From Eledone cirrhosa (Eukaryota), in assembly GCA_964016885.1 (NCBI GenBank), contig OZ024747.1, forward strand, positions 38,440,001 through 38,504,000: a DNA stretch of 64,000 nucleotides. Reading direction: 5' to 3'. Below the pieces are notes generated by a model that saw only the letters and a program-made list of their open reading frames with translations, was not told the DNA's origin and ran no database searches. The position numbers and the translations under genes were made by a program. Shown one piece after another: positions 1 to 59,375 of the stretch. Each line of letters starts with the position of its first letter. Within the stretch, counting starts at the first letter, position 1.

Positions 1-3000
1 TAGAGTCCTTGCGAGGTCTGCCGACTTATCAAGAGGATACCTCATTTTACTAGTCTCAAGAACGCGTCTACACGACGTGAGAAAGAATCCCAAAAGGCGG
101 AGGGGGAGATAGTCACGCGATATAACGGTCGAGAAACAGAGCTAAGCCTCTTATAACCACGAAGAAAATACCACGGAGGCGGAGGGGGTATTCATATCGA
201 GGCCGCAGAAGAGGTAGTGAAGAAGGCGAGAAGTATGAGTAATGGAAGCTTTCCAGTTGTCCCCACACTTCAAAGATTGCTCGACCAGAGGGAGTTAATA
301 TATTTAGAAACACACAGATACATGCGGACACACACATATATACATGAATGCATCCGCACCCAACTGTGAGTTAAGGGTGCCAACTTCACCGATGTTGCTC
401 AATGAATGACTGGGACAGACCAATTCAGTTTGAACCGGACTGAACCAGTATCAGAGTTAAAAATACATTATGAAGAGAGAAGAAACATTTAGATATAATT
501 AGTAATAAAATGTATCATACCTAAACTGTTCCTAAATTCCTCGACTACGTAGTTTCGTGGCATAAACAAAAACAATATATCAAAGATATAGAGTCCTTGC
601 GAGGTCTGCCGACTTATCAAGAGGATACCTCATTTTACTAGTCTCAAGAACGCGTCTACACGACGTGAGAAAGAATCCCAAAAGGCGGAGGGGGAGATAG
701 TCACGCGATATAACGGTCGAGAAACAGAGCTAAGCCTCTTATAACCACGAAGAAAATACCACGGAGGCGGAGGGGGTATTCATATCGAGGCCGCAGAAGA
801 GGTAGTGAAGAAGGCGGGAAGTATGAGTAATGGAAGCTTTCCAGTTGTCCCCACACTTCAAAGATTGCTCGACCAGAGGGAGTTAATATATTTAGAAACA
901 CACAGATACATGCGGACACACACATATATACATGAATGCATCCGCATCCAACTGTGAGTTAAGGGTGCCAACTTCACCGATGTTGCTCAATGAATGACTG
1001 GGACAGACCAATTCAGTTTGAACCGGACTGAACCAGTATCAGAGTTAAAAATACATTATGAAGAGAGAAGAAACATTTAGATATAATTAGTAATAAAATG
1101 TATCATACCTAAACTGTTCCTAAATTCCTCGACTACGTAGTTTCGTGGCATAAACAAAAACAATATATCAAAGATATAGAGTCCTTGCGAGGTCTGCCGA
1201 CTTATCAAGAGGATACCTCATTTTACTAGTCTCAAGAACGCGTCTACACGACGTGAGAAAGAATCCCAAAAGGCGGAGGGGGAGATAGTCACGCGATATA
1301 ACGGTCGAGAAACAGAGCTAAGCCTCTTATAACCACGAAGAAAATACCACGGAGGCGGAGGGGGTATTCATATCGAGGCCGCAGAAGAGGTAGTGAAGAA
1401 GGCGAGAAGTATGAGTAATGGAAGCTTTCCAGTTGTCCCCACACTTCAAAGATTGCTCGACCAGAGAGAGTTAATATATTTAGAAACACACAGATACATG
1501 CGGACACACACATATATACATGAATGCATCCGCACCCAACTGTGAGTTAAGGGTGCCAACTTCACCGATGTTGCTCAATGAATGACTGGGACAGACCAAT
1601 TCAGTTTGAACCGGACTGAACCAGTATCAGAGTTAAAAATACATTATGAAGAGAGAAGAAACATTTAGATATAATTAGTAATAAAATGTATCATACCTAA
1701 ACTGTTCCTAAATTCCTCGACTACGTAGTTTCGTGGCATAAACAAAAACAATATATCAAAGATATAGAGTCCTTGCGAGGTCTGCCGACTTATCAAGAGG
1801 ATACCTCATTTTACTAGTCTCAAGAACGCGTCTACACGACGTGAGAAAGAATCCCAAAAGGCGGAGGGGGAGATAGTCACGCGATATAACGATCGAGAAA
1901 CAGAGCTAAGCCTCTTATAACCACGAAGAAAATACCACGGAGGCGGAGGGGGTATTCATATCGAGGCCGCAGAAGAGGTAGTGAAGAAGGCGAGAAGTAT
2001 GAGTAATGGAAGCTTTCCAGTTGTCCCCACACTTCAAAGATTGCTCGACCAGAGGGAGTTAATATATTTAGAAACACACAGATACATGCGGACACACACA
2101 TATATACATGAATGCATCCGCACCCAACTGTGAGTTAAGGGTGCCAACTTCACCGATGTTGCTCAATGAATGACTGGGACAGACCAATTCAGTTTGAACC
2201 GGACTGAACCAGTATCAGAGTTAAAAATACATTATGAAGAGAGAAGAAACATTTAGATATAATTAGTAATAAAATGTATCATACCTAAACTGTTCCTAAA
2301 TTCCTCGACTACGTAGTTTCGTGGCATAAACAAAAACAATATATCAAAGATATAGAGTCCTTGCGAGGTCTGCCGACTTATCAAGAGGATACCTCATTTT
2401 ACTAGTCTCAAGAACGCGTCTACACGACGTGAGAAAGAATCCCAAAAGGCGGAGGGGGAGATAGTCACGCGATATAACGGTCGAGAAACAGAGCTAAGCC
2501 TCTTATAACCACGAAGAAAATACCACGGAGGCGGAGGGGGTATTCATATCGAGGCCGCAGAAGAGGTATTGAAGAAGGCGAGAAGTATGAGTAATGGAAG
2601 CTTTCCAGTTGTCCCCACACTTCAAAGATTGCTCGACCAGAGGGAGTTAATATATTTAGAAACACACAGATACATGCGGACACACACATATATACATGAA
2701 TGCATCCGCACCCAACTGTGAGTTAAGGGTGCCAACTTCACCGATGTTGCTCAATGAATGACTGGGACAGACCAATTCAGTTTGAACCGGACTGAACCAG
2801 TATCAGAGTTAAAAATACATTATGAAGAGAGAAGAAACATTTAGATATAATTAGTAATAAAATGTATCATACCTAAACTGTTCCTAAATTCCTCGACTAC
2901 GTAGTTTCGTGGCATAAACAAAAACAATATATCAAAGATATAGAGTCCTTGCGAGGTCTGCCGACTTATCAAGAGGATACCTCATTTTACTAGTCTCAAG

Positions 3001-3119
3001 AACGCGTCTACACGACGTGAGAAAGAATCCCAAAAGGCGGAGGGGGAGATAGTCACGCGATATAACGGTCGAGAAACAGAGCTAAGCCTCTTATAACCAC
3101 GAAGAAAATACCACGGAGG
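1..3119 (-). repeat. 588-bp tandem array, left arm (about 5.3 units, runs off the window start); HHR-sense strand is minus
   Basis: Exact 588-bp periodicity (tagagtcctt at 1, 589, 1177, 1765, 2353, 2941); only isolated substitutions between units. Confidence 0.98.
534..631 (-). ncRNA. Type I hammerhead ribozyme, U3-A8 variant (also - 1122-1219, 1710-1807, 2298-2395, 2886-2983)
   Basis: Reverse complement of the motif at 3671-3768, present once per left-arm unit. Confidence 0.8.
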
Positions 3120-5597
3120 ACTCTATATCTTTGATATATTGTTTTTGTTTATGCCACGAAACTACGTAGTCGAGGAATTTAGGAACAGTTTAGGTATGAT
3201 ACATTTTATTACTAATTATATCTAAATGTTTCTTCTCTCTTCATAATGTATTTTTAACTCTGATACTGGTTCAGTCCGGTTCAAACTGAATTGGTCTGTC
3301 CCAGTCATTCATTGAGCAACATCGGTGAAGTTGGCACCCTTAACTCACAGTTGGGTGCGGATGCATTCATGTATATATGTGTGTGTCCGCATGTATCTGT
3401 GTGTTTCTAAATATATTAACTCCCTCTGGTCGAGCAATCTTTGAAGTGTGGGGACAACTGGAAAGCTTCCATTACTCATACTTCTCGCCTTCTTCACTAC
3501 CTCTTCTGCGGCCTCGATATGAATACCCCCTCCGCCTCCGTGGTATTTTCTTCGTGGTTATAAGAGGCTTAGCTCTGTTTCTCGATCGTTATATCGCGTG
3601 ACTATCTCCCCCTCCGCCTTTTGGGATTCTTTCTCACGTCGTGTAGACGCGTTCTTGAGACTAGTAAAATGAGGTATCCTCTTGATAAGTCGGCAGACCT
3701 CGCAAGGACTCTATATCTTTGATATATTGTTTTTGTTTATGCCACGAAACTACGTAGTCGAGGAATTTAGGAACAGTTTAGGTATGATACATTTTATTAC
3801 TAATTATATCTAAATGTTTCTTCTCTCTTCATAATGTATTTTTAACTCTGATACTGGTTCAGTCCGGTTCAAACTGAATTGGTCTGTCCCAGTCATTCAT
3901 TGAGCAACATCGGTGAAGTTGGCACCCTTAACTCACAGTTGGGTGCGGATGCATTCATGTATATATGTGTGTGTCCGCATGTATCTGTGTGTTTCTAAAT
4001 ATATTAACTCCCTCTGGTCGAGCAATCTTTGAAGTGTGGGGACAACTGGAAAGCTTCCATTACTCATACTTCTCGCCTTCTTCACTACCTCTTCTGCGGC
4101 CTCGATATGAATACCCCCTCCGCCTCCGTGGTATTTTCTTCGTGGTTATAAGAGGCTTAGCTCTGTTTCTCGACCGTTATATCGCGTGACTATCTCCCCC
4201 TCCGCCTTTTGGGATTCTTTCTCACGTCGTGTAGACGCGTTCTTGAGACTAGTAAAATGAGGTATCCTCTTGATAAGTCGGCAGACCTCGCAAGGACTCT
4301 ATATCTTTGATATATTGTTTTTGTTTATGCCACGAAACTACGTAGTCGAGGAATTTAGGAACAGTTTAGGTATGATACATTTTATTACTAATTATATCTA
4401 AATGTTTCTTCTCTCTTCATAATGTATTTTTAACTCTGATACTGGTTCAGTCCGGTTCAAACTGAATTGGTCTGTCCCAGTCATTCATTGAGCAACATCG
4501 GTGAAGTTGGCACCCTTAACTCACAGTTGGGTGCGGATGCATTCATGTATATATGTGTGTGTCCGCATGTATCTGTGTGTTTCTAAATATATTAACTCCC
4601 TCTGGTCGAGCAATCTTTGAAGTGTGGGGACAACTGGAAAGCTTCCATTACTCATACTTCTCGCCTTCTTCACTACCTCTTCTGCGGCCTCGATATGAAT
4701 ACCCCCTCCGCCTCCGTGGTATTTTCTTCGTGGTTATAAGAGGCTTAGCTCTGTTTCTCGACCGTTATATCGCGTGACTATCTCCCCCTCCGCCTTTTGG
4801 GATTCTTTCTCACGTCGTGTAGACGCGTTCTTGAGACTAGTAAAATGAGGTATCCTCTTGATAAGTCGGCAGACCTCGCAAGGACTCTATATCTTTGATA
4901 TATTGTTTTTGTTTATGCCACGAAACTACGTAGTCGAGGAATTTAGGAACAGTTTAGGTATGATACATTTTATTACTAATTATATCTAAATGTTTCTTCT
5001 CTCTTCATAATGTATTTTTAACTCTGATACTGGTTCAGTCCGGTTCAAACTGAATTGGTCTGTCCCAGTCATTCATTGAGCAACATCGGTGAAGTTGGCA
5101 CCCTTAACTCACAGTTGGGTGCGGATGCATTCATGTATATATGTGTGTGTCCGCATGTATCTGTGTGTTTCTAAATATATTAACTCCCTCTGGTCGAGCA
5201 ATCTTTGAAGTGTGGGGACAACTGGAAAGCTTCCATTACTCATACTTCTCGCCTTCTTCACTACCTCTTCTGCGGCCTCGATATGAATACCCCCTCCGCC
5301 TCCGTGGTATTTTCTTCGTGGTTATAAGAGGCTTAGCTCTGTTTCTCGACCGTTATATCGCGTGACTATCTCCCCCTCCACCTTTTGGGATTCTTTCTCA
5401 CGTCGTGTAGACGCGTTCTTGAGACTAGTAAAATGAGGTATCCTCTTGATAAGTCGGCAGACCTCGCAAGGACTCTATATCTTTGATATATTGTTTTTGT
5501 TTATGCCACGAAACTACGTAGTCGAGGAATTTAGGAACAGTTTAGGTATGATACACTTTATTACTAATTATATCTAAATGTTTCTTCTCTCTTCATA

Positions 5598-5603
<6 letters not shown>
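3117..5603 (+). repeat. 588-bp tandem array, inverted right arm (about 4.2 units), ending in (TA)n
   Basis: Reverse complement of the left-arm unit with 588-bp period; junction ccacggAGG/AGGactctat at 3117-3119; followed by (TA)n to 5650. Confidence 0.98.
3671..3768 (+). ncRNA. Type I hammerhead ribozyme, U3-A8 variant (also + 4259-4356, 4847-4944, 5435-5532)
   Basis: Stem I TCCTC(3677-81)/GAGGA(3760-64); core TTGATAA 3682-88; stem II GT(C)GGCA/TGCCAC; GAAA 3746-49; palindromic stem III ACTACGTAGT; GTC cleavage triplet ending at 3759. Confidence 0.8.
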
Positions 5604-5650
<47 letters not shown>

Positions 5651-9420: not shown

Positions 9421-9910
9421 ATCTAAAGCATCACATATCCTGCAGCACATTCCTACAATACGCAAAGAGCTGCACGTAGCAGGGTCATAGTACTTTATTG
9501 CGGTTAATGAATAGTGTGTTCTGAAATCATCAACTTTTAGAGAAGTCGCCCCCACAAAATCAACTCGATGTAAAGACAGTACAGCAAAACATTGTTCGTA
9601 ATACACTGGCAAAACATTTGTTATATATGCAAACTATCTTCCTTATATCCTATCATACAATCTGCTGTCAGGTAGTCATACAATGAAAGGCAGATGTTAG
9701 CGAGAAATATAACTATTATTAAAATCCCAATTAACAGACTAATTCTATTTAGTCAAATACAGCATAAGCACATGTTACTATCTAATTTTCAAATTCCCTA
9801 GCAGTTTGTAAACAAATCATGCTTTGCGTCTCCCTATTTATAACTATTATTGTTATTTCTCCATGCATGTTTCTTTTGTATAATATGATTGTTTCATTTC
9901 TTCTTACAAG

Positions 9911-11164
9911 GTTAAAGAATTAACTTTAATGCGTGCGTGGAAGAAAGACAATATAGAGAAAGAGAAGATGCTTGAATTTAAAAGTCAACAATTAGAGCAG
10001 TTTCATGAATTCAAAATGAATATGAATGTCAAAGATAATGAAATTGAAGAACTAAAAATGAGAGCCGATCAGTATAAATCCGCATATTATAATCTGCAGT
10101 TGAAAGTAAACGCTTTTGAGAAAGACATCTCTAGTTTAAAAGCAAAACACAGAGAGGATCTAATGATACAAATACGTTCTAATAGGGCAACTGAATCCAC
10201 AAAAGAACGACTCGCAGGCAAATTAACTTCTGCTGAATTTCTTCTTCGGAATATTCATAAATATATTTCACAAACTATATCTCTGAAGCCAAGAACAAAA
10301 GATATAGAAGAAATAGCTTTAGTAGAAAATGAATTTGCATTCCTTTGGGATGATTTTGAAACATTTTACCACGTGTTTCTTGATCTCCAAGAAACTCAAA
10401 AACATTACAAAGAATTGCACCAAGAAAATGAATGGGTTTTAACATATCTTGGATTTGCTCCGCAGAAGCAAAATACACCAAATCTTGTAAATGCATTTAA
10501 GGATTTTGCTTCCCATTCAGAACAGAATGTCCTAAACCTAAAAAAGGATATCAACATGAAGAACCAGCTTCTTCGTGACAAAAATACTTTGATTAAAAAT
10601 CTATTACATTATAAAGAAATAAGCAAGGAGTCTACACAACCAAATAAAGTGCATTCGTTAAAGACAATGGCAATGAGTCTCATTCGCCAGCAAATTAATG
10701 TATCTCTGGATGACGTTCAAGAAAACAGTGAGAAAGTAAAGGAATCCGTAATTAGAAGTAGTAGAGAAAGACATTGGAAGAACTACAGAGAAGACAAAAT
10801 AGTGAATACATTATCCAAAAGGAAGGTGAAACCACATAAAATTGCTCGAAAAAGTGAAGACAAAAATGAAGCAAATATATTACCTGGTAGATCTAGGTGT
10901 GAAATAAAACAAGAAACAAAAATAAACGAATTTACTGAACAGAAGCTATCTAGCTTACCTTCTATTGATAATGCTGTACTTTCGCAGACCAATTCTCGTT
11001 ATCAACGCCAGACAAAAGGTTTCAGTTTGAGAAATAGCAAAATGTCGACAAATATGGCGTATAATCATAATTTAAATACCAGGCAGTCGTCAACACCTCT
11101 ACTCGACGGATTGACCACTAATTCAATAAGAATCTTTACAGAAAAACATGGCAAAAATGACTGA
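9911..11164 (+). CDS. Probable terminal coding exon of a host coiled-coil protein (about 417 codons), family not recognised
   Basis: Uninterrupted 411-aa ORF in AT-rich DNA; E/K/L-rich heptad-like N-terminal half and basic S/T-rich tail; polypyrimidine tract + AG acceptor (tttcttcttacaag|GTT) 18 nt upstream of and in frame with the ATG at 9929. Confidence 0.7.
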   Translation, partial: VKELTLMRAWKKDNIEKEKMLEFKSQQLEQFHEFKMNMNVKDNEIEELKMRADQYKSAYYNLQLKVNAFEKDISSLKAKHREDLMIQIRSNRATESTKERLAGKLTSAEFLLRNIHKYISQTISLKPRTKDIEEIALVENEFAFLWDDFETFYHVFLDLQETQKHYKELHQENEWVLTYLGFAPQKQNTPNLVNAFKDFASHSEQNVLNLKKDINMKNQLLRDKNTLIKNLLHYKEISKESTQPNKVHSLKTMAMSLIRQQINVSLDDVQENSEKVKESVIRSSRERHWKNYREDKIVNTLSKRKVKPHKIARKSEDKNEANILPGRSRCEIKQETKINEFTEQKLSSLPSIDNAVLSQTNSRYQRQTKGFSLRNSKMSTNMAYNHNLNTRQSSTPLLDGLTTNSIRIFTEKHGKND

Positions 11165-20599: not shown

Positions 20600-22463
20600 T
20601 ATTTGTATGCAAGTGTACGCGTGTGTATGTGTGTGTGTATATATGTGTGTGTGTATGTATGTATGAGTGTGTGTGGGTGGACCAGTATTTTTGTGATACT
20701 GGTAAAAATGGTGTACATGATTCGATATTTTCAGTAAAATGATTCTCTCAATAGAACAACAAAAACCTTAATAATAAAAGGTGTGAAGTGATATATAGTA
20801 TTGGCATAACACCAAGGTGTGTGTAAGTGTCCAGATTGTACGTACTGCAAGGGGAATCCATTAGGCCTTGCCGTATTGGAATACTTGTGTACAAATATGT
20901 ATGTGTCCATCAGTGTGCAATGCATGTGTGCGAATATGTATGTGTGTGTGTCGGCACGTTTATATCTATAGACATCAAAAGGTATGCAAATTTGTGTATA
21001 TTTGTGTTGCACCATAGAACATGTGTGTTTACGTATGTCATTGTGTTTATATGTGGATGGAGATGTATGTAGGATGTATGCTGATGTAGGTATGTATGTT
21101 GACGTGTGTATGTTGTGGGTTCGTCTTAGGGAGAAGTGTTTAGACGGGGTTCCTATTTGTTAATAAAGTGAGATTCCTTGCTGATGCGCTGGGTGTGGGT
21201 GGCATTATCTTTAAATTTGTCGAGGGGAAAGATTCTGAAGGTGGGATGATTTTGGGCGGCACAGGTATCAATGTGTTCACTCAGTGGTATTTTCCTATAT
21301 TCCCGTATTTTAATTTGGGATCTATGGACAGTCATGCGGAGGCTGATTTTGGTCTGGCCTATGTATTGTTCTCGACAGCCTGAGCAAGTTAATACATATA
21401 TTAGATTTTCTGATGCGCATGGGAAATTGTGTTTTACTATAAAACGTTGTCCTTCTTTGAAATAGAATTCCGAACCCTCTATTAGGTAGATGCATATGCC
21501 ACAGTTGGGTCTATCGCATTTTTTTACTGTGGGTTTCGTTGTTGTGGTTGGCTGTACTTTGGCATGTGTTAGGATGTTTTTCATTGACTTAGATTGTTTT
21601 TGCTCTTTATGATATCGTGTGTTCGTAGGATTTGGTTCATTCTATGGTCCTTTTTTAACACAGGGATGTTCTGGAGGATGGTGTCAAAGGCCTCATTGTT
21701 GAGGGGGTTGTGTGGGGAGATGTATGGAAGAGCTTTTAGTTTCGGTTGATTTACTTTAGGATGTCTAAGGTCCTGGGTACTGAGTTTTTGGGCACGTTGG
21801 ATTCCGTTGTCAATTAGTGATGCAGGTTAGTCCCTGCCTATGAGTGTGTCCTTTAATTCTTGTAGCGGTAAGTAACAGGTGTTTTTTATTGGAGACTATA
21901 GTACAGATTCTCTTGGCTAAGTTGTAGGGAATATTAATTTTAACGTGTCTAGAGTGGCAGGAGTTGAAAGGAAGATATTGCTTGGAGTCTGTGGGCTTGT
22001 AGTATATGTCTGTTTCTATTTTTTTTGTTATGAATCTTAATGAGGATGTCGAGGAAGGGGAGTTGTTGATGGCTGTATTCCATCGTGAAGTTAATATTCG
22101 TGTGAAATCCTTTAAGTTTCTCGATGTTTTCGTGCCAAAGGATTTAGCAGTCTTCTAGATATCGCTTCCAGTTCCTTTCTATGTGTAAGTGGAGAGTGTT
22201 TCCAAATTTGTTTAGTACTTTAGTGTAGAGGGTGATTTCCAGGTATCCCATGACTAGGTTGGCATAAGTTGGGGCTGTTTTCGTTCCAATAGCGGTCCCA
22301 GATTTCTGCCTGTAAGGTTTGTTATTGAAAAGGAAGTAATTGTTCTCCAAAATAAATTTGAGTCCCTCTATCACGAATTCTTTTTTGATGCGTTGTGGGA
22401 GTTCATTGTGGTAATTATACAGCCAGAATTGGATAGCTTCTTTTCCTAGGTTGTGAGGGATGT
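19833..22463 (-). mobile_element. Penelope-like element, 5'-truncated (RT C-half, GIY-YIG endonuclease, CA-rich 3' region/pLTR)
   Basis: NIPH...QKSGTAIGTKTAPTYANLVMG...RYLED (RT); CxxxxCxxC...LIYVLTCSGCREQYIGQT (GIY-YIG); frameshifts and stops present. Confidence 0.92.
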
Positions 22464-22847: not shown

Positions 22848-24685
22848 GTTCTTTGAGTCTCAGTCATTGATGTTATTTAACTGGAAAGTTTGTTGAAAGG
22901 AATATCAAGCTGCTGCCTGCAGCCTCAGATATTCAGGACGTATCGGAGGGTTCTTGCTGTTCCCAGCAAAGATGCCTTTTTTAAGTGTTCCAAAAAGCGG
23001 GGCTGGACCAATATTCTTTAACCATCCCTGGAAACTCCTTGAGATAGTACCCAGTGCGTCTATGACATCGGGACCACTTTGACTTCATGGCAGTTCCAAA
23101 TCCTTTTTACCTCCCACTTTAAATCCTGGTATCGGTTAATTTTCTCCCGCTCCTTCACTTGCACTCTCGTGTCGGATGGGCAGGCCACATCCACAATCAG
23201 GCACGATCTATGTTCCTTGTGCAAAACCACCAGGTCAGGTTTATTGTGTTCCAGTTTCTTGTCCGTCTGTATCCTACAATCCCACAGCACCTTCACCTGA
23301 TTGTTTTCTATCACCGACTCTGGTTTATGCTCATACCACTTCTCACAATGTGCAAAATTGTTTACTTTGCACAGGTGCCAGTGGATCACCCTCCCCATCA
23401 GATCATGTCTCCAGCCTTTATAGTGAGGCTGGGCTAGGTGTTTACACTCGGACACAATGTGAGCCACAGTCTCCTCTCTCTCTCCACAGATCCTGCACAG
23501 TGGACTAGCCTCCTCCTTGTAAATCTGGTGTTTCAGCCACTTCGTTTTGAGAGCCTGCTCTTGCGCAGCCATTAGCATTCCTTCTGTAGCCTTTTTAAGG
23601 TCTCCTCTTTTCAACCAGTTCCATGTCTGTGAATCTCTGAATTCCGTTTTCTAAAGAAGGTACTATGAAGGGATTTTTCATGAAGGCTGCTCTTTCTCAT
23701 TGTTGTTATTTCCTCCTTGGACATCCCCTGGTCTATTGTCCTCTCCTTCAGTACAATTCCGAGCATTGGCTCCTTACTATCGGTCACGTATTTGTCCAGG
23801 TTGTTTTTCCCGATCTGAACACAGTCCTCTATGCTGATAAGGCCTCTTTCAACTTCAGATCTCCTTAAGTAGAGTCTATCGACATCACTCCTCTTGTGGA
23901 ACATGTTGTAGATAGTCAATAGCTTCCTAGTCTTCCTATCCATTTCTTTTTGTTCAGCAATATTCCATCTCAGAATTCCCGCACTGTACCTAATAATAGA
24001 CACAGCTCGGGAATTTACTGCACTTATGGCATTCCTACTGTTCAGATGTGACTTTAATACGCTCCTTACTCTCCAAATGTATTCAGATCTTATCGTTTCC
24101 TTCGTTTTTTTTTGTTCTTGATGTGATCAGCCTCCAGAACACCAAATACTTGTATCCTTCTTCAGTGTTAATTTCCTTTATCATCTCACCTGTTGGTACC
24201 TGGATTCCGTTGCTCCTGCTCAATTTACCCCGCTTCGTCACAAGGATTCCACACTTACTAATACCAAATTGCATACATATATCATTGCTGAAAATACGGA
24301 CAGTGTCAACAAGCACATCCAACTCCTTCTCACTCTTCCCGAAGAGCTTAAGATCGTCCATGAAGAGGAGGTGATTGATGGTAAGCTCTCCCTTTCCCAA
24401 CTTGTATCCTGCTCTCACTTTTCGCAGTATAATTGTCAGGGGTATCAGGGCAAGGACAAACAACAGAGGGGTCAGACTATCTCCCTGGAAGATACATCTG
24501 TTGATTTTAACGCCTCCCAAGGATTCTCCAACTGATGTTAACTCTGTTTTCCAGGACTTCATACTTTTGCTCAACAACTGTCTGATATTATCTGCCACCC
24601 TGAATATCTCTACGCTTTTGGTGATCCAAGAATGAGGCAAATGCCTTTTTGAAGTCTATCCATCCCATGGCAAGATCAGTGTGTC

Positions 24686-24686
<1 letters not shown>
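22848..24686 (-). mobile_element. R4/Dong-like RLE LINE family A, copy 1 (5'-truncated)
   Basis: RT QGDSLTP / FMDDLKLF; CRIC...HIVSEC zinc knuckle; KPDLVV..D RLE; (TAA)n tail. Confidence 0.93.
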
Positions 24687-24728
<42 letters not shown>

Positions 24729-26119
24729 GTTCTTTGAGTCTCAGTCATTGATGTTAGTTAACTGGAAAGTTTGTTGAAATGAATATCAAGCCACCACCTG
24801 CAGCCTCAGATATTCAGGACGTATCGGAGTGTTCTTGCTGTTCCCAGCAAGCATGCCTTTTGAAGCGTTCCAAAAAGCGTGGCGGGGCCAATTTTCCTTA
24901 ACCATCCCTTTAAAATGTTTGAGATAGTTCCTAGTACGCCAAAGACAATCGGGACTACTTTGACTTCATGGCAGTTCCAAATCCTTTTTACCTCCCACTT
25001 TAAGTCCTGGTATCGCTTAATTTTCTTCTCCCTCTCCTTCTCTTGCACTCTCGTGTCGAATGTGCAGGCCACATCCACCATCAGGCACGATCTTTTTTCC
25101 TTGTCCAAAACCACCAGTTCAGGTCTATTGTGTTCCAGTTTCTTGTCCGTCTGTATCCTAAAATCCCACAGCACCTTCACCTGATCGTTTTCTATCACCG
25201 ACTCTGGCTTATGCTCATACCACTTCTCAGAATGTGGTAAATTGTTTTCTTTGCATAGGTGCCAGTGGATCACCCTGCCCATCACATCATGTATCCAGCC
25301 CTTATAGTGAGTCTGGGCTAGGTGCTTACACTCGGAGACAATGTTAGCCACAGTCTCCTCTCTCCACAGATCCTGCACAGTGGGATAGCCTCCTCCTTGT
25401 AAATATGGTGATTCAGCCACTTTGTGTTGAGGGCCTGCTCTTGGGAAGCCATTAGCATTCCTTCTGTAGCCTTTTTAAGGTCTCCTCTTTTCAACCAGTT
25501 CCATGTCTGTGGATCTCTGAATTCCGTTTTCTCAAAGAAGGTACTATGAAGGGATTTTCATGAAGGCTGCTCTTTCTCCTTGTTGTTATTTCCTCCTTGG
25601 ACATCCCCTGGTCTATTGTCCTCTCCTTCAATACAATTCCAGGCATTGGCTCCTTACTTTAAGTCACATATTTGTGTAGGTTGTTTTTCTCCATCTGAAT
25701 ACAGTCCTCCATGCTGATAAGACCTCTTCCACCTTCAGATCTCCTTAAGTAGAATCTATCGACATCACTCCTCTTGTGGAACATGTTGTAGATATTCAAT
25801 AGCTTCTTAGTTTTCCTATCCATTTCTTTTTGTTCAGCAACATTCCATCTCAGAATTCCCGCACTGTACCTAATAATAGACACAGCTCGGGAATTTACTG
25901 CACGTATGGCATTCCTACTGTTCAGGTGTGACTTTAATACGCTCTTTACTCTCCGAATGTATACAGATCATATCAATTCCTTCATTTTTTTGTTCTTGAT
26001 GTCATCAGCCTCCAGAACACCCAAATACCAGTATCCTTCTTCAGTCTCAATTTCCTTTATCATCTCACCTGTTGGTACCTGGATTCCGTTGCTTCTGCTC
26101 AATTTACCCCTCTTCATCA
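24729..26119 (-). mobile_element. RLE LINE family A, copy 2 (5'-truncated)
   Basis: Same 3' end as copy 1 (...GTARTLRYVLNI*, 3'UTR, (TAA)n). Confidence 0.93.
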
Positions 26120-26144
26120 ATTATTATTATTATTATTATTATTA

Positions 26145-29100
26145 CAGCTGCATTTATCTTGCTTTATGTTCATACGAGTTATCACCAAGTCACAACCAGT
26201 GAACTCAAGAGACAACAAGGTCCGCCATGTTCAAGAATGAACATACATACTCACACATGCATCTTTAGGTGTTTAGACTTGTGATGTACTTCTATTGACA
26301 GAATCTTCCAATGTATGTATTGTGCAGCTCTGTCAAGCCTGTTTAGGTATTCGGTTGGAGCTATAGGACTGCACATTGAAATGATATGATCAATGGTCTC
26401 TGGTTGTTTTTTTACATACACGGCATAATGGGCTGCACCCATTTTTTATTATGTTGGCTTGGTAATTCTTTGTTGGCAGACACTGATATTGTGCTGATAT
26501 AATCAGTCCTTCATTCTCCGATTTCAGTCCAGAGGATGCCAACCACTGATGGGTTAAAGTTTTGTCAACATCAGGATTGTTAGCTCGTTCTGGTTATTTT
26601 ACATACAGAGGTTTTTCTTGCCATTTCTTAGCCAGTTTCTGTAGCAGTTCTTTCTTTTCAGTTACTTTTACCTGCTTTGCTTTTTCTGTGTTTTCCATTT
26701 CAGCAGTAAATGGGACTTCTGAAATGTGTAGTCCATTACTGTATCTTTGTGCATCTTTTGTAATGGAATATGATCTTTTGATGCTTTCGTGTTTCAAAAC
26801 GAGTTTGATCATCCAATCATGTGATTCCCTTAGATATGTAGATAATTCAATTGTTGCAGTTTTCAACGCAATATCTAACTGGATTAACCCACTTCCTCCT
26901 GCTTTCATAGAGAGATATATTCTATCTGTATCTGCCTTAGGCTGATGCATTCTGTCCATGGTTAAGAATTTTTGAATATTTGTATCGAGCCTACGGATCT
27001 CTGTGCTTGACCAGTTGATGACATTGTAAATGTAGGTTACTTCTGGTATGGGAAGCGTGTTTATGGTATCGATCCTATTCCTTGCATTCAATTCCGTTCT
27101 TTAGATTGCTCTTACTCTACGGTAACATTCCTTCCTTATCCTTTCCCTCATCATCGAGTGCTTGATTCCGTCTCCTTCACAAACACCTAGATATTTGTAA
27201 GTTTCCTCTTGATCAAGTTCTCTTATCACATTCCCCCGATCAAGATTAATATCTGAACTTTTCAGCAGCTTTCCTCTGGTGAACGTTGCTTTGGCGCATT
27301 TATCTAGTCGAAACTCCATTTTAATGTCATCACTGAACTGCTCCACAGTGGATAATAGCCCTTGCAATTGTTCATCATTTTTTGCAAATAGTTTCAGGTC
27401 ATCCATGTAGAACAAGTGATTAATGGTTTTGTCATAGACTTTATATCCATGTTTTGTTTCTTTGAGCATTTTACTTAATGGTATAAGTGCGATGCAGAAT
27501 AAAAGCGGTGATAAAGTGTCACCAGGAAAAATTCCACAATTAATATTTACTTCTCCAGCTTCCAGTGATTTTTTTTCACTATTCAAACGGAGTGTCTTTT
27601 TCCAAGTCTTCATACTGAATGACAGGAACCTTCTGACAACGGGAAATATTTTGAAAATCTCTCAACATTTTTCAATCCAACTGTGTTGCAATCTATCGCA
27701 TGCATTTTTCTAATCTATCCAAGCAATTGATAGATTTTTGTGTCTATTATGACCATCTTCCTTTATCATTTTGTTAGCCAAAAGATGGCCTTTACAGCCA
27801 TATGAGTCTCGTTTACTCCCTTTGTGTTCATTGGCAAATATATCATTTGTTATCAGGTGGTCATATGTATATTCAGTTAGGACTGATGTTAACATTTTAT
27901 ACATTCTGGTCAAGCAAGTTATCGGTCTGTAATTTTGGGGATTGTTTGTCTCATCATTCTTCGGAAGCAGGAATGTAATGCCGTTAACTAGCCAGTATGG
28001 TATCTTTTCTGGCTCCTTAACTATTTCATTGTAAAGTTGGTCTAACAGCTCATGAGACTCTGTGAAGGCATTTATCCAAAAATTTTGTATTTTGTGTTTT
28101 CCTGGGGATTTCCTTTTGCTGGTTTTTCTAAGAGCCAAACGCAACTGTTCAACGGTTATATTTTCCCATGTTTGTTCCTCAAGGTGAGCTGTATCTTTCA
28201 TTCATCTGTCTATCCATGGGGCATGTATATTATGAACATTTTCTTCGTCCCAGATCTTTTCCCAGAATTCTTGCACTTCCTCCTTGGGTGGTATTGATTT
28301 AGCAGTTATTGTTGACTTGCCAATTTTTCTGTAGAAGTCTCTTTGGTTGTTTTTGAACATATTATTGTCCTTATAGAATCTAGATCGTTTTTCAAAGCGC
28401 CTTATACGAGCAGCTTTGGCCGACAGCTTTTGCTTGATTATTTCTATCAGCATGTCTATGTCACGTGTTGATTTCATACTGTATTTCTCTTCAATTTTCT
28501 AAGTTTAGTTTGTTTAACATGTTCACCTACTTTGTAGTGTGTTAAATTTCTATGTCAGATCGGAGAAGGTTTATTTGGTGATTGATGTTCTCTTTCCAAG
28601 TAGATTTCTTGTGGGAATTCCTTTGTTTTTTCATCTTCACTCCACATAAGTGAGTGGTGACTTTAGCCGATGCATAATAGAGATGATTTAAATCAGTAAT
28701 GTTTAGTTTGTTTGTGATGATAATGTTTTTGAGAATTATGTTAGTCTTGTGTATTATATTTTCGTTCTGTTTGGAGTTCTGTATCTTAGGGAGAGTGTCT
28801 CGTTCCCCCATGTCAGATTCTTTCGTTTTCATCCATTCGATCATAATTTCATCCTTCAAGTTGGCAAGTTCATTCTCATTCATTTCTTTATCATTTATGA
28901 TCTCATTGTTTTCATTTTGAATTTCATCTTGAGCATCCCGGTATTTCTTGGTCACGGGATTTTCTTTTTTTGTTGTTTTTTAAATTGTTATTATCATGAG
29001 TGGTTCCTTAATGTGAGCATTGCGTGGCTTAAGAATGAAATTATTATTAATAATATAATATACTTTTTGTTGAAGTTGCCTGTTATTGTTGTTGGCTATG

Positions 29101-30050: not shown

Positions 30051-30117
30051 TTTTATCTGATGAAAACACAAATATTATTGCATGATGATGTTTGTTTTTG
30101 AAATGCGCATAATAAAA
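30051..30117 (+). ncRNA. Type I hammerhead ribozyme in a 250-bp unit between two (TA)n runs
   Basis: TTTTAT-CTGATGA-[16-position stem II, one mismatch, loop GCAT]-GAAA-TGCGCA-TA-ATAAAA; palindromic stem III. Confidence 0.85.
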
Positions 30118-30240
30118 TACATGGAACTCCTTTAACCATCTTTTGATCTTATATTATGTATACTCCAGTCCTACAAACTGTAGAGTGCTTCTTATCCGAT
30201 ATCTGCATTGCTTTATTGTACTACAATAAAACTCACCTCC

Positions 30241-32571: not shown

Positions 32572-36476
<3,905 letters not shown>

Positions 36477-36479
36477 CCC

Positions 36480-38945
36480 TTAGAAGGGCCCTAAAGAAAC
36501 ATAATCTCAATATTAAGATAGTAGAAAGAGCTGGTACCTCCGTAAAAACACTTATTAGCAAGACATACCCGTTCCAAAGACCCTCATGTATAGATAAGAA
36601 ATGTATAACCTGTAAAATAAGCCCCCATATTAACTGTAAAACTAGAAATGTAGTATATAGCATAAGATGTACTGAAGGACAATGTAGAAACAAAAATATA
36701 GTGTACATAGGTGAGACAGCTCGTAGTATAGGGGAACGAATAAATGAACACTGGCGAGACCTCCAAGATAATAAAGAATCATCTGTGCTCTACCAACATG
36801 CTAAGATAGAACACAGGGGTAAATTAGAGAGCATAGAAATAAAAATAGAATCCACACACAAGAAAGACGCAATGTTTAGGCAAATTACAGAGGCAGTAAG
36901 CATAAAAGAATTAAAACCAAAATTAAATAGAAAATATGAGTGGAACAGCAACATCACAACTTACAATTAAGGACAAAATGAAAACACACACACACATAGA
37001 ACAAACAACTTACAATTGAAAACACACACAAAATGAAAACACACACAAGACAAAATGAAAACACACACACACATAGAACAAACAACCAACCAACAATAAA
37101 TAAATAAATAAACAAACAAATAGAAAAATATAAATAGAAAAATAGAAAAATGAACACAAACACACACAGACACCCGGATGTGGCGCATGCGCAAACTGAG
37201 CACGCAACCCACACACAAACAAAATGGCGTAGGATAGAAGAAAGAAATCCCCAGTCACTGAAGAGGTCACAGAGTGTGTGACGAAAGAACTATGACTATA
37301 TATATATAAACAACTATCTGGTTGTGGAACCAACCAACCAACCAGAAATTTATAAATTTGTAAATTTATAAATATATAATAAATTAAATTGAAGTGAAAG
37401 CAACTGGTGCGTGTGTTTCTTATTGGCAACATGACCCTCCCAAAGTACAACAATATCGGTTTCAACACACGATTTCAGATAAAGAATCTTGCTAAACAAA
37501 TTCAGAAACGAAATATCGTAAGCCTTAGCCAGGCTAACAAGATACTGAAAACCACCATGTTCTGTTGTCTACGAAAAACCATAACATCTCGACAACTACG
37601 CTTCATAAAACTGTGCACCACTTCTAGAATCTACACCAACACCATCAATACCGACGTTAGAAGATTACAACTCACCAAAAAACAAGCAGATAGGCTAAAA
37701 CGAACTTTAATTCTAAACATAAAAAAGAAGATCTATAGAGAATTAAGTCATCAAGAAAAACTAAAGCGTAACCTAATACAAGAAATATCTAAAATCACCA
37801 CACCAGCAGAAAAACTAACATTTATAAGCCTTATACGCCCCGAAGAACAGTACATTACTCAAGAATGTAATAAGCACTTTAACAGAAAATTAAAGTGGCT
37901 TAAACAGGCAAAGCTAAATCGGGATACTATAGAGTATACCAATAGATATCCCGACAAAATTGACGGTATCAACATGGCCGACACCTCATTATCTGAAGAG
38001 TTCAACAATGAAAATACCAACATTTATGGAAACACGGAAATAGATAATAATGAAATGTCTGTGCTACGTCTGCCACCCAAATTTGCGACATTCAAGAAGG
38101 TAAATATGATTAGTTGTCTGTCAGAAATAGAAAAATCATTTACGAAACTACGCTGGAGCATCAAAAACAAAAACAAAAGCAACAATATACGCACACACAT
38201 ATACAACACACATCCCAACAACAACAGACACACAGACACAAACAACAATAACAACAACAATAGCAACATACCCAGATACAACAGACACGCAGACACAAAC
38301 AACAATAACAACACACACGGAGACAACAATAACAACAACACACACATCAACAACAACAACAATAGCAACATACCCAGATACAACAACAACAGACACACAA
38401 ACACAAACAACAATAACAACACACACAACAACGATAACACACACACACACGGAGACAACAACAACACACATCAACAACAACACACATCAACAACAACAAC
38501 ACACACGCATTCAATGCCTCTCACCACCACCACAATCTTAACAAACAGACAGACACAGAAAACAAGTAATGACAGTAGCACAGAAATCAGAGAAATAAGA
38601 GAAAGTAATAGGATTAAAAGGAAAAGGAGATGGGAGACTAAGGACAAAGAGAATAACCAAGACGAACACACAGACACACAAAATAGGGTAGATAACAACA
38701 TTGAGCCAGTGGAAAGAGACAGGAGTAATTATGAGAGACATAGAAACAACCATGAAGCTGAGGCTGCTGCTGTTGGTGGAAATAGAAACAACACAACTAA
38801 CAATAACAATAGCACTAGTACACATAAAGCAGCAGCCTGGAACTCTCCGTTTTATAACCCCTCCGATAAATCATTCGACCTACGACGAGTCCACGCCACG
38901 ACTTTGCCATTTAACAAACGCACGCAGTTGCCGTCGCAGGTCGAT
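36480..38945 (+). mobile_element. Inverted partner copy of the same PLE (endonuclease end, pLTR, ORF 5' half)
   Basis: 36480-37515 is the reverse complement of 33726-32672; then open from ATG 37431 and overlapping the main copy from about 37982. Confidence 0.96.
37253..37297 (+). ncRNA. Minimal type I hammerhead in the PLE pLTR (second copy - 32888-32932)
   Basis: AGTCA-CTGAAGA-G-GTCACA(gagtg)TGTGAC-GAAA-GAAC-TA-TGACT. Confidence 0.78.
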
Positions 38946-39300
38946 ATGTTTGATATGTTTGAGCAGAGTGTCCTCAGCGTAAGCTAGTAAAAGTCATACA
39001 CCCTGAAATTGGTTTCCAATTAATGCCTTCGGGTGCTGCAGATATTCTGTGTAACATGGTGATCATCATAGGGGAATAAGATACAAATCAGAATACAGCT
39101 CAGCACACGGGTGTATTTGGCACTCGTTTTTACACTGATATACTCACATTTCTGCTCTCCAGCAACAACTTGGGATATTCTGCGAGTCTTGAACTACTGA
39201 ATAATTATCAATTTGGATAGGCAGTCAAATATTCTTAGACTACTACAGATAAATTCTCTATCTACAGTATCAAAAGCATTTGACAGATCAACAAATGTCG
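38946..39300 (-). mobile_element. RTE-like LINE RT fragment
   Basis: Minus strand reads FVDLSNAFDTVDR. Confidence 0.65.
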
Positions 39301-51031: not shown

Positions 51032-54000
51032 GAATGCTATGGTTGACGGAGGCTCGGCTCTGTAAGGTATTGTAAATTTGACCGCTATGACAATTGTAAA
51101 ATGTTTAAAACTTTAACCAAATTGTAGACAAAAACACCCTCCTCTTCGTGAGAGGGGTCTTTCTGCCCGTTATTTGGCCCTTCGGGGTTAAATAACCGCT
51201 TATTGGGGTTTTGTGCCCAATATTTATTTTAAACAAAAAAAAAAAATGGCTACGAAAAAGAATTTTCATAGGTCACTCCCACTCATTCCATCTTCTTCTT
51301 CCCCAATCGTCACTACAGCAGAGAGAAGATTGTCTCTCTCCCTCCCTTCTCTAAATATGTCTCTCTCCCTCCCTTCTCTTTCGCAAGCGACGCCAGAAAA
51401 GAAAAATCACGTGCAAAGCGTGCAAGATTTCTCCACGACGACGACGACAACGACGAAAAAGGTGTGCGGGAAATACGAAAACCCATTTCATTCGTCTGAC
51501 GTCAGGAATAATAGCAGTAGCAGCCGTAATAACAGCAGCAGCAGCAACAGTGACAAGGAAAACAACAGTAACAGCCGCAACAACATCAGCAGCAGCATAA
51601 ACACAACAGCACTAGCAGCAACAACAACAGCAGCAGCAGCAACAACAACAACAACCACAGCAACAGCGGCGGCGGCAGTAGTCGTAGTACCTGCATCAAC
51701 AACAAAAGTAACAGCAGCTCTGACGACAACAAAAACAATAACAGCAGCAAAGAAAAACCAATCTCGTTTGCAGGTATCGCAAAGAACCTGGAAACCATCC
51801 TCATAACAAATGAGAAATTAGGGGAAGCGAAGAAGATGGTGACGAAAACCGGACACCGAGCAATCTGCAAGGCAGCCGAAACATTTTTCGAAACCTAACA
51901 GCACTGTACGGTCACGTACCGTACAGTAAGCACAACATCCCTCAGGGTTGAAAGATCCACAGAGGCTCAAATACAAAAAGCCTTAGGGTCTGTGTGGCAG
52001 CGGAAAACGCACATCACCCGAGGCAAGAAATATGCCACCGTAGACGTGCTTTTTGCCACACCCCAGGAGGGAAAGGCTCAATCCTTAGTGACCCTAAGGA
52101 GCGGCGAAATGGTGTTGGTGCCCTCCTATGGGGGCAAAAAATTGTGAGTGTCAAACTGACCCCCCCCCCACGGGAGGGCCCGTTCTTGGCTGGCCGCGTC
52201 TGTCCTCGTCGGAATCGAGGACAAAACAACTGTACTGCAAGTACAGAAAAAAGTAAGAGAAGATTGGGTCGGCACCTCCATTGAGATGTTAATCCAAACC
52301 AACCAGGAGTGCATCGAAGCTTTCCCGGATGTGATAGACTTCGATAACGGCACTCAACTGCCCAGAAGTGTTCAGGGCAAACGCCCGAAATGCTTTCGCT
52401 GTGGATTGAAGACTCACCTCAGGGCCTTCTGCAACGAGAAGACACTGAGAAAGGAGAAAACCCCCCTCCTTCCGAAAACGGCTCCACGGCTACCAGCAAC
52501 AGGACAAGCGGCAACCAGGAACGATAGGTCCGTGCAACGCATACCCACGCCACGGAAATCAAAAACAGCAGCAGCAGTGGAAGTATTAACAACAACAACA
52601 GCAATACCAAATGCAGCTGCAACAGAGACTCCAGTGCAAACATCACCAACAACAACAAGTGAAAGAGTGGAGCTGGTACCCCTCCCCGACCTCACATAAT
52701 CAGACATGGAGTGTGAGGTGGGAGAGGGATGGCAAAAGGTCGTAAGAAGGCACAAACGCAGAAGCAGCGCATCGTCGCCTTCGAAAAAGGAGGAAAGAAA
52801 TGAAAAAAGGGTAAAGGCTACTGCAAAGAGACTCACAGCAGCAACACCACCCACACCATCACCACCCACACTAGCACCACCATCACCACCGGCGACAACC
52901 CCACCGCCGACAACAACAACACCTTCAACACCACCACCACAAGCACCAACATCGCAAATACAACAAAATACACACACCCAGCAACAACGACAAGAAAATA
53001 GCAGAACCACACCCCACCCCCAGAAAAAGAAATGCACGGCAATAAATACACACAACAAGAAACTAATGACTTACATAATTGAACACAGACATTTCACAGC
53101 ACGACTACATGATACCAGCACCAATCAAAGCGCCAACTAACATAAGACTGCCAAATATAGCACAGAAACAATACACAGACATTAAACGAAATTCCCCAAC
53201 GCAGTTGGTGATTTCAGAGACCTAGGAGGGACTCTCAACCGGAGAGTGTATTCGGACATACTTATAGAAGAGCCGACGACCAGCCGAAGGGGCGATTCAA
53301 CGGTCTCTTCACCAGACGATCAAGTGAAAAGGGATGGAAAAACCATCCTTCCTCTACGAAAAGTACGGTAAGAGGTCTTTCCCATCTTTTCCACTCTATT
53401 TTAAACATGACCTCACTCAGAATAGGCAGCATAAATGCGCGTGGCTTGGGGTCGTCATGGAAGCAAGGTCACCTGCTCAACGACCTCAGGTCACTAAACA
53501 TAGATGTAGTTGCCATCAGCGAGACCAGAATCTCCGAAGCACGGGCCTTCGCACCGATCTTCTACGGCTACGATGTGTACGCATCTCCCAGCCGTCCGGG
53601 ATCGGGGGGTGGAGTTGCTGTGCTTTTTCGGAAAGGTTTGGATCTCGCCATACGGGCATTCTTCCTGAAGCCAGAGGGTAAGTTAGTGGTGCTGGACGTT
53701 ACCAGCGGAGACGGGCAAGCTTTCAGGCTAGTGGCTGTCTATGCCCCGACAGGAACATGGCGGCCTGATTTCTTCCGGCGTCTGGAGACCTTTCTTGGAA
53801 CATTCCCGCTCTTTAGTGTTAGTGGGCGACTGGAACGGGATCTTAGATGCACGCTGGGACTGTGTGGGATTAGCGGATAGAGGTGGAGGGTGCAAGAGCC
53901 TCACCAACCTGATCAGGCGTTTTGAACTGTCTGACAGGTACCGATTGGATTTCCCGAATGTGCCAATGTGGACTTGGACAAATCGCATAGGGTCATCCAG

Positions 54001-57396: not shown

Positions 57397-59350
57397 CCTT
57401 GAATCTCAGTCATTGATGTTGGTTAACTGGAAAGTCCGTTGGAATGAATATCAAGCCACTACCTGCAGCCTCAGATATTCAGGACGTATCGGAGGGTTCT
57501 TGCTGTTCCCAGCAAGCATGCCTTTTGAAGCGTTCCAAAAAGCGTGAAGGGGCCGATTTTCTTTAACCATCCCTGGAAACTTTTGGAGATAGTCCCCAGT
57601 GCGCCTATGACAATCGGGATCACTTTGACTTCATGGCAGTTCCAAATCCTTTTTACCTCCTTTATACCTACTTTTTACCGCCTTTATAGTGAGTCTGGGC
57701 TAGGTGTTTACACTCGGATACAATGTGAGCCACAGTCTCCTCTCTCTCTCTCTCCACAGATCCTGCACAGTGGGCTAGCCTCCTCCTTGTAAATATGATG
57801 TTTCAACCACTTCGTTTTGTAGGGCCTGCTCCTGCGCAGCCATTAACATTCCTTCTGTAGCCTTTTTGAGGTCTCCTCTTTTCAACCAGTTCCATGTCTG
57901 TGGATCTCTAAAGTCAGTTTTCTCAAAGAAGGTACTATGAAGGGATTTTCCCTGAAGGCTGCTCTTTCTCCTTGATGTTATTTCCTCCTTGGACATCCCC
58001 TGGCCTACTGTCCCCTCTTTCAGTACATTTCTGAGCATTGGCTCCTTACTATCAGTCACGTATTTGTATAGGTTGTTTTTCTCCATCTGAACACAGTCCT
58101 CTATGCTGATAAGACCTCTTCCACCTTCAGATCTCCTTAGGTAGAGTCTATCGACATCACTCCTCTTGTGGAACATGTTGTAGATAGTCAATAGCTTCCT
58201 AGTCTTCCTATCCATTTCTTTTTGTTCAGCAACATTCCATCTCAGAATTCCCGCACTGTACCTAATAATAGACACAGCACGGGAATTTACTGCGCTTATG
58301 GCATTTCTGCTGTTCAGATGTGACTTCAATACGCTCCTTACTCTCCGAATGTATTCAGTTCTTAACAATTCCTTCATTTTTTAGTTCTTTATGCCATCAG
58401 CCTCCAGAACGCCCAAATACTTGCATCCTTCCTCAGAGTCAATTTCCTTTATCATCTCACCTGTTGGTATCTGGATTCCGCTACTTCTGCTCAACCTACG
58501 CCTCCTCATCACAATGACTCCACACTTACTAATACCAAACTGCATACATATATCACTGCTGAAAATACGGACAGTGTCAACAAGCACATCCAACTCCTTC
58601 TCACTCTTCCCGAAGAGCTTAAGATCGTCCATGAAGAGGGGGTGATTGATGGTAAGCTCTCCCTTTCCCAACTTGTATCCTGCTCTCACTTTTCGCAGCA
58701 TAATGGTCAAGGGCATCAGAGCAAGGACAAACAACAGAGGGGACAGGCTATCTCCCTGGAAGATACCTCTCTTGATCTTCACGCTTCCCAAGGATTCTCC
58801 AGTTGATGTCAACTCTGTCTCCCAGGACCCCATACTCCTGCCCAGCAACTGTCTGATGTTATCTGCCACCCTGAAGATCTCCAGGCTTTTGGTGATCCAA
58901 GAGTGAGGCACCATGTCAAATGCCTTTCTGTAGTCTATCCATCCCATGGCAAGATCAGTGTGTCTCCTCCTACCATTCCCCATTACCATCTTATCAATAA
59001 GTAACTGGTCCTTTGTACCACGTGACTTCTTTCGGCATCCTTTCGTCCAGCATCCTTTCGTCCGGCATCCTTTCGTCCGGCATCCTTTCGTCCGGTAACA
59101 AGTTGTTTGTGTAGAGGTGATGGTAGATTTTCTCAGACACAATGCTTGTCAACAGTTTCCACATTACGGACAGACATGTGATAGGTATATAGTTGGTAAC
59201 ATCATTACCCTTGGTTCGGTCTTTCATTATCAGAACTGTGGTACCTTTTGTCAACCACTCTGGCACCTCACCCGACACCAAGCAGTCATTGAACATGGCC
59301 GTCAGTTTCGGGTGGAGGGATGTTAAATTTTTAATCCAATACCGCTGCAT
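57396..59350 (-). mobile_element. RLE LINE family A, copy 3 (internal deletion in RLE, 15-bp tandem expansion in RT)
   Basis: [18 protein letters not shown]; same 3'UTR as 22848 and 24729. Confidence 0.93.
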
Positions 59351-59375
59351 ATTATTATTATTATTATTATTATTA

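Follow-up and report, generated by a model that had tools for sequence, protein, structure and literature searches.

This study asked whether a hammerhead-like motif in the genome of Eledone cirrhosa, with an altered core and a possible contact between stem I and loop II, is a working ribozyme, and what kind of repeat carries it. The motif lies in a stretch of 64,000 nt (assembly GCA_964016885.1, contig OZ024747.1, positions 38,440,001-38,504,000 of the forward strand), which is called the window below and to which all coordinates refer unless stated. The account we favour, with a probability of roughly 0.7 for the whole, is that the motif works as a type I hammerhead within a non-LTR retrozyme copied by an enzyme of Penelope-like elements (PLEs), and that it combines a U3-A8 core pair with a 6-bp pseudoknot.

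The hammerhead motif

Type I hammerheads share a consensus made up of core positions 3-9, 12-15.1 and 16.1, with a Watson-Crick pair between positions 3 and 8 and an NUH cleavage triplet. The motif in the window carries UUGAUAA in place of CUGAUGA, as the original prediction had read it, and the stem I strands UCCUC and GAGGA were likewise verified at the letters (Table 1); GAAA is found at 3746-49, and a GUC triplet ends at C3759. All three elements of the type I core (UUGAUAA, GAAA and GUC) are thus present in the motif, and U3-A8 was found in 22 of 22 aligned copies of the family, these being lineage representatives chosen by hand from 133 distinct segments. Helices I, II and III are arranged around the core, with helix I open, and are 97-99% paired in the 22 copies. 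It is because the core and the three helices are also kept in subfamilies only about 75-85% identical to the unit that the hammerhead was judged to stand above chance, and judged from sequence it is likely to be self-cleaving. Rfam covariance models gave no match to the motif at the gathering score, and the eight matches at E<=10 included no hammerhead family. Folding of the 126-nt region was no better than that of shuffled sequences (z -0.33).

Table 1. Features of the predicted ribozyme and of the array that contains it, in window coordinates.
Feature	Position	Strand	Remark
inverted arm	1..3119	-	588-bp units placed head to tail, the first of them truncated at its 5' end; reaches (TA)n at unit position 245
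six ribozyme copies of the inverted arm	cores near 2972, 2384, 1796, 1208, 620, 32	-	
forward arm	3117..5603	+	first unit truncated at its 5' end so that it starts within loop II; four complete units follow, then 80 nt of tail up to (TA)n
tentative distal stem I, 5' strand	3658..3662	+	pairs with 3775-3779
pseudoknot 5' strand, (U/C)GAGGU	3670..3675	+	also 5' arm of the competing local hairpin with 3678-81
stem I, 5' strand	3677..3681	+	pairs with 3760-3764; three states of pair 3680:3761 (U-A, U·G, C-G)
catalytic core positions 3-9, UUGAUAA (U3-A8)	3682..3688	+	
stem II, 5' strand	3689..3695	+	pairs with 3740-3745; bulged C3691 is U in 4 insertions
pseudoknot 3' strand, ACCUC(G/A)	3697..3702	+	in the internal loop of extended helix II
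extended hairpin on helix II	3703..3735	+	predicted to form 13 pairs, with changes of the types A-U/G·U and U-A/U·G/C-G
GAAA (positions 12-15.1), palindromic stem III (3749-3758) and C17	3746..3759	+	predicted cleavage after 3759
stem I, 3' strand	3760..3764	+	
one unit of 588 nt, from one predicted cleavage site to the next	3760..4347	+	
next ribozyme copy	4270..4347	+	further plus-strand copies start at 4858 and 5446
(TA)n microsatellite, 3' end of insertion	5601..5650	none	

The periphery of the motif proved different from the first reading in several places. A distal extension of stem I by AAAU/AUUU had been proposed, but it is paired in only 69% of cells of the alignment, one of its pairs is broken in 17 of the 22 copies, and it lays claim to U3670 together with the pseudoknot. 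A helix formed by 3658-62 and 3775-79 is offered tentatively for this part of stem I; it is paired in 92.7% of cells, its A/G changes face U's, and an older lineage has lost one pair. Two alternative registers (3661-64/3767-70 and 3651-59/3766-74) were broken by lineage variants and were dropped. Loop II had been described as long and open. The strands of stem II are indeed separated by 44 nt (3696-3739), which include the hairpin UAUAUC-UUU-GAUAUA at 3712-3726, but most of this stretch forms an extended hairpin (3703-09/3729-35 plus 3712-17/3721-26) that is paired in 99% of cells, which lengthens helix II and places ACCUC in an asymmetric internal loop within it. A young sub-lineage that includes a multi-unit array (L159, at G000:C1:36736000-36739900, with L147, L155 and L160) carries U in place of the bulged C of helix II, so the identity of this bulge is free.

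Stem III is a perfect palindrome, in which no variant was common to at least three insertions. Within a monomer it is reduced to 3 bp and a tetraloop, while the duplex between copies has a predicted energy of -14.9 kcal/mol. By analogy with type I motifs of animals, for which dimeric cleavage has been described (PMC4209133; reviewed in PMC6155905 and PMC6765202), such a stem would fit cleavage between copies, as we infer here.

The U3-A8 pair in the family and the genome

Taken on its own, the U3-A8 pair had seemed an unusual double change at this locus; it is instead fixed in the family, shared with other families, and already published from nature. Twelve family copies have lost U3 and 13 have lost A8, each with the other base unchanged, and none has C3-G8. 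What this copy carries is an inherited pair common to the family, not a local repair. Perreault et al. (2011, PMC3088659) mention 'several' natural U3-A8 hammerheads, and about 1,300 such motifs were described in Schistosoma (Cervera & de la Peña 2014, PMC4209133). In a mutational scan of a type III hammerhead, the 3-8 pair was rescued only by a G-C swap (10.1101/2022.05.17.492349), which implies that U3-A8 can cost activity elsewhere and that tolerance of it depends on context.

Elsewhere in the genome, a short-loop hammerhead pattern open to both core pairs found 3,287 matches (control, 118), and among the matches listed U3-A8 was present in 98 of 100 motifs, with four further families distinguished by stem sequence, one of them a 316-bp tandem repeat. 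Limited to C3-G8, the same pattern found 23 matches (control, 4); it requires helix II to begin with a G-C pair and the site to be GUC, and so excludes other designs. An abundant PLE, for instance, has a minimal hammerhead with C3-G8 and a UA site, of which 9,104 exact copies were counted. Cores other than U3-A8 thus exist in this genome, and the pattern matches suggest that U3-A8 is tied to a class of elements.

Several of these other hammerheads were seen at individual loci. About 3 kb upstream of the window (L001:6100-7550) is an inverted-repeat insertion with a second U3-A8 family, which has a hexaloop on helix II and elsewhere occurs in 316-bp tandem arrays. A candidate GUUG/CAAC pseudoknot in this family (L001:7001) was rejected, as the match is not kept in its copies, which look instead like the canonical loop-bulge type. 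Further U3-A8 families were noted at L080, L081, L087 and L091-L094, one with a C·C mismatch and a palindromic helix II hairpin, and one with a CAAUAA-type loop. Within the window, at 30057-30125 (+), just upstream of an (AT)n run, there is a further hammerhead-like motif with C3-G8; its helix II is AU-rich, its helix III is palindromic, and its site is UA.

The 588-bp repeat and its insertions

The motif is present in every full unit of a 588-bp non-coding repeat, which forms a tandem-plus-inverted array between (TA)n runs. The array extends from 878 bp before the window start to 5603 and comprises 6.4 minus-strand and 4.2 plus-strand units, 98.8-100% identical overall and 99.7-100% among full units. 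Its two arms are joined head to head at 3117-19, with a 3-nt overlap, and the outer ends of both lie in (TA)n, a sequence in which a target-site duplication (over 4 bp, where there is one, in the definition of non-LTR retrozymes) is unreadable. The unit has no stop-to-stop frame over 85 aa, a GC content of 0.40-0.43, and no tRNA-derived promoter part detected by ARAGORN. Folded as a circle it reaches -175.5 kcal/mol, compared with -134.7 ± 5.5 kcal/mol for 40 shuffles (z = -7.5), with 63% of its bases paired.

Copies of the unit are numerous and dispersed. A 22-mer from the ribozyme has 5,731 exact matches in the 3.0-Gb genome (control, 0), and an 18-mer from the 3' tail has 8,480. Among 16 independent insertions, drawn from 30 loci, a head-to-head inverted arm was present in 11 and TA runs at the flanks in all 16. 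The two preferred 3' ends of the insertions, at unit positions 80 and 245 and the only ones counted, were found 64 and 44 times. At loci L003-L032, forward arms end mostly at unit position 80 and inverted arms mostly at 245-247, a tail difference of 165 nt that is longer than the 30-40 bp tail given for PLEs (10.1101/2021.04.23.441226).

Several of the features by which retrozymes are recognised were found, namely tandem units of a few hundred bp that each hold a type I hammerhead, a non-coding sequence of GC under 50%, many dispersed copies, and a predicted self-paired circle, and the 588-bp family is likely to be a very abundant and recently amplified repeat of the non-LTR retrozyme kind. 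It could be objected that the repeat is a satellite propagated at the DNA level, in which the hammerhead is a vestigial passenger and U3-A8 a product of AT-biased decay; the genome is AT-rich, and DNA processes could homogenise near-identical tandem units. Such an origin is very improbable, given that the insertions number thousands, are dispersed, truncated at their 5' ends and in part inverted, and have fixed 3' ends within (TA)n; that the core and helices are conserved and compensated across lineages; and that single changes at position 3 or 8 are rare and scattered.

Conservation of the probable pseudoknot

Complementarity between GAGGU (3671-3675) and ACCUC (3697-3701) was part of the original prediction, and both strands were verified as given. 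A complement of this length is common by chance: when the 5' strand (14 nt) and the loop (44 nt) were shuffled 5,000 times, 58% of the trials gave at least five Watson-Crick pairs, a share that fell to 7% when only the first seven loop nucleotides were allowed. The case for the pseudoknot consequently rests on its conservation in relatives. The comparison of copies added a sixth pair, 3670:3702, and the resulting 6-bp helix was paired in 99.2% of cells across the 22 copies, its end pair occurring as U-A (12), U·G (8) and C-G (2). Covariation, which had been put forward as a check, was thus seen in these subfamily copies at the end pair, but the five central pairs are invariant and show none. 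For the structure as a whole, the covariation was modest: it was matched by 12 of 500 shuffles, a figure that according to the tool is not a probability, and by 202 of 500 when changes on both sides were counted.

A second line of evidence came from the distribution of variants in 71 independent insertions. Variants common to at least three insertions were found at 2 of 42 core and helix positions and at none of 10 pseudoknot positions, compared with 38 of 101 positions in flanks and loops (Fisher p=0.015 for the pseudoknot against flanks and loops), a comparison in which indel-prone flanks inflate the background variation, the 22-mer used to retrieve part of the sample includes ACCUC, and the 20 loci chosen for their core variants were excluded. 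ACCUC was retained in 44 of 45 copies retrieved by a pattern blind to it. The proposal that the motif is under selection and not decaying is supported by this pattern.

More distant relatives separated the two possible partners of GAGG. An older subfamily (173 matches of a 19-mer from the flank) is about 75-85% identical to the unit over long matches, and a third, also older, lineage (85 matches) supplied 27 distinct copies from 30 loci. Of these 27 copies, 19 have C-G at the stem I pair 3680:3761, five have U·G, two U-A and one C·C, while the pseudoknot strands are unchanged, with UGAGGU in 20 and ACCUCA in 23. Since stem I went from U-A to C-G without a change in GAGG, A3672 follows U3700 and not the stem I strand. 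Both pseudoknot strands are intact and in register in 11 of the 19 C-G copies, and the rest differ singly, as old copies do. A pseudoknot between the stem I bulge and loop II is, on these comparisons, the probable reading of the conservation. Pseudoknots between the peripheries of helices I and II have been described in all three types of hammerhead and predicted in about 40% of the representatives of one study, and the human C10orf118 ribozyme requires one of five base pairs (PMC3088659).

It is conceivable that the hammerhead works while its true helix I-II contact is non-canonical, and that the two 5-mers are kept for another reason, such as a protein site in RNA or DNA, or the youth of the family. 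The uncompensated central pairs and the frequency of chance complements leave room for this, as does the sampling of only about four lineages. We nevertheless hold it to be distinctly unlikely: neither strand varies more than the catalytic core, the adjacent bases do vary and even include an insertion just 5' of ACCUC, and all three states of the end pair can pair.

A predicted competing hairpin in the leader

The sequences GAGG (at 3671 and 3760) and CCUC (at 3678 and 3698) each occur twice in the motif, and a local hairpin of GAGG (3671-74) with CCUC (3678-81) is therefore open to the same strands. In pseudoknot-free folding this hairpin dominates the ensemble, with a probability of 0.94-0.97, and stem I has a probability of 0.0; the nested active fold, at -26.0 kcal/mol, lies 7 above the minimum of -33.0 kcal/mol, before any energy of the pseudoknot (its duplex, -7.9 kcal/mol), and the model that gives these values cannot score pseudoknots or Mg2+. 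The duplication of both sequences and the strength of the hairpin raise the idea of a folding switch, in which GAGG would trap the stem I strand until ACCUC frees it, so that cleavage is delayed and multimers are spared for reverse transcription. Inserted arrays hold up to 11 complete ribozymes, which agrees with such a delay, and folding of the C-G lineage continues to predict a hairpin in this leader, though in a shifted register. The switch could act instead of the docking contact or alongside it, and the ribozyme itself would be real in either case.

The third lineage fits the pseudoknot and not the hairpin in its exact register, because GAGG stayed as it was when the stem I strand changed. 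U3675, A3697 and the pair 3670:3702 are moreover constrained in the pseudoknot model only, and the hairpin was predicted with a model blind to pseudoknots and Mg2+. We hold a switch to be unlikely. A broader proposal, also rather doubtful, is that hammerheads in this genome are sorted by element class, full-size U3-A8 forms in about five repeat families and minimal C3-G8 forms in the autonomous PLE, with the exchange of strands tuning the timing of cleavage.

Probable mobilisation by Penelope-like elements

The insertions of the 588-bp family show 5' truncation, partial tandems, an inverted 5'-truncated copy and a microsatellite target, the set of features that Craig et al. (10.1101/2021.04.23.441226) described for insertions of PLEs. 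An element of this kind is present in the window at 32711-38987, in an inverted arrangement, with a reverse transcriptase (RT) frame at 33967-35766 (-) and a GIY-YIG frame at 33241-33966 (-). Its family is young and of high copy number (150 scored matches are 98-100% identical), is represented at other genomic sites by intact frames of about 1,280 aa with RT and GIY-YIG domains (the longest frames reach about 1,380 aa), and has two preferred end points, both in (TA)n. The terminal repeat of the element carries its own hammerhead, at 32911-32933 (-) and 37252-37274 (+), which is of the minimal C3-G8 kind with CUGAAGA, a UA site and an extra base before helix II.

A PLE enzyme is proposed as the mobiliser because the anatomy of the insertions matches that of PLEs and because an intact, (TA)n-inserting family is present in the genome; by this analogy, mobilisation was probably carried out by a Penelope-like reverse transcriptase/endonuclease. 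When the unit was compared by BLAST with 30 loci of the abundant PLE family, only low-complexity matches were found among the matches listed; with no sequence in common between this family and the unit, the partner that moved the unit is an inference. The unit does not appear to be a derivative of the PLE at 33241-35766, with which no terminal-repeat homology was found and whose hammerhead is C3-G8. Matches by tblastn in 182 hammerhead loci were considered as a possible autonomous partner and were read as neighbouring insertions.

Other remnants of mobile elements were noted in the window. A fragment at 21153-21641 (-) represents the C-terminal part of a different PLE-like endonuclease, with no Pfam match, and a piece 92% identical to it adjoins, in inverted orientation, the U3-A8 hammerhead at L081. 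Broken frames of non-LTR retrotransposons, RT-like or endonuclease-like by eye, occur at 23060-28201, 52160-56154 and 57775-61518, and a 426-aa coiled-coil-like open frame at 9884-11164 (+) is possibly a host exon.

Under the account we prefer, of a retrozyme hammerhead mobilised by a PLE enzyme, each ribozyme would fold within transcripts that read through an array, with U3-A8 replacing C3-G8. The pseudoknot would hold helices I and II side by side and replace the non-canonical loop-bulge contact, while helix III, weak and palindromic, would be made up from two adjacent copies as a double hammerhead. Monomers of 588 nt, set free by cleavage after GUC3759, could then be closed into circles by ligation, and the PLE enzyme would reverse-transcribe these circles for more than one round into (TA)n targets, giving rise to tandem units and an inverted, truncated copy.

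Comparison with known systems

The family is most like the non-LTR retrozymes of metazoans as these are presented in PMC7229834 and 10.64898/2026.07.22.740005, which are likewise non-coding tandem units with a type I hammerhead in each, have a GC content under 50%, thousands of copies, a self-paired circle and a short palindromic helix III, and coexist with autonomous PLEs. The 588-nt unit exceeds the range of 150-450 bp given by Cervera & de la Peña (2020, PMC7229834) but falls within the 51-972 bp of Li, Clavereau & Pollet (bioRxiv 10.64898/2026.07.22.740005). It differs from the retrozymes described in these sources in its U3-A8 pair, in having a Watson-Crick pseudoknot and a 13-pair extension of helix II instead of a hexaloop contact, and in showing no pLTR homology to an autonomous PLE, for the one PLE family compared.

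A U3-A8 hammerhead of high copy number, in an animal genome and with a link to PLEs, has a counterpart in the Cercyon PLE variant of Schistosoma mansoni (PMC4209133). The Schistosoma motifs described there are minimal, heterogeneous and mostly single PLE hammerheads, whereas the U3-A8 motifs of Eledone are of full size and belong to about five families; moreover, the abundant intact PLE examined in Eledone has C3-G8, in contrast to the U3-A8 of the Cercyon variant. The C10orf118 hammerhead (PMC3088659) similarly has a Watson-Crick helix joining the peripheries of stems I and II. In the Eledone motif, unlike that of C10orf118, the partner strand on helix II lies in an internal loop before a long hairpin, stem I is a second possible partner of the 5' strand, and the host is an active repeat, not a single conserved intron. 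With the PLE insertions of 10.1101/2021.04.23.441226 the family shares, besides the features already listed, alternative 3' tails; it departs from them in that the unit has no RT or GIY-YIG frame and in the wider spacing of its 3' ends noted above.

Significance

U3-A8 cores and pseudoknotted hammerheads have each been published already, and every ingredient of the present system has a precedent; it involves no new chemistry and no new kind of element. The 588-bp family, the architecture that combines U3-A8 with the pseudoknot, and the split of core pairs by element class were not found in the literature searched, though supplements of those papers may list them. As Rfam models miss the class entirely, such animal ribozymes are probably undercounted.

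The findings bear on two open questions, the dominance of C3-G8 among natural hammerheads and the role of hammerheads in Penelope-like elements and retrozymes. The family offers a natural case, at high copy number, in which the rare U3-A8 pair is joined to a Watson-Crick pseudoknot, and in which single and compensatory variants are available in dated subfamilies. If the division by element class and the folding switch were both true, the core pair and the pseudoknot would together set a cleavage rate that is under selection, and the natural variants, with their thousands of dated copies, could then be used to test why hammerheads are found in retroelements, and at what rate these are required to cleave.
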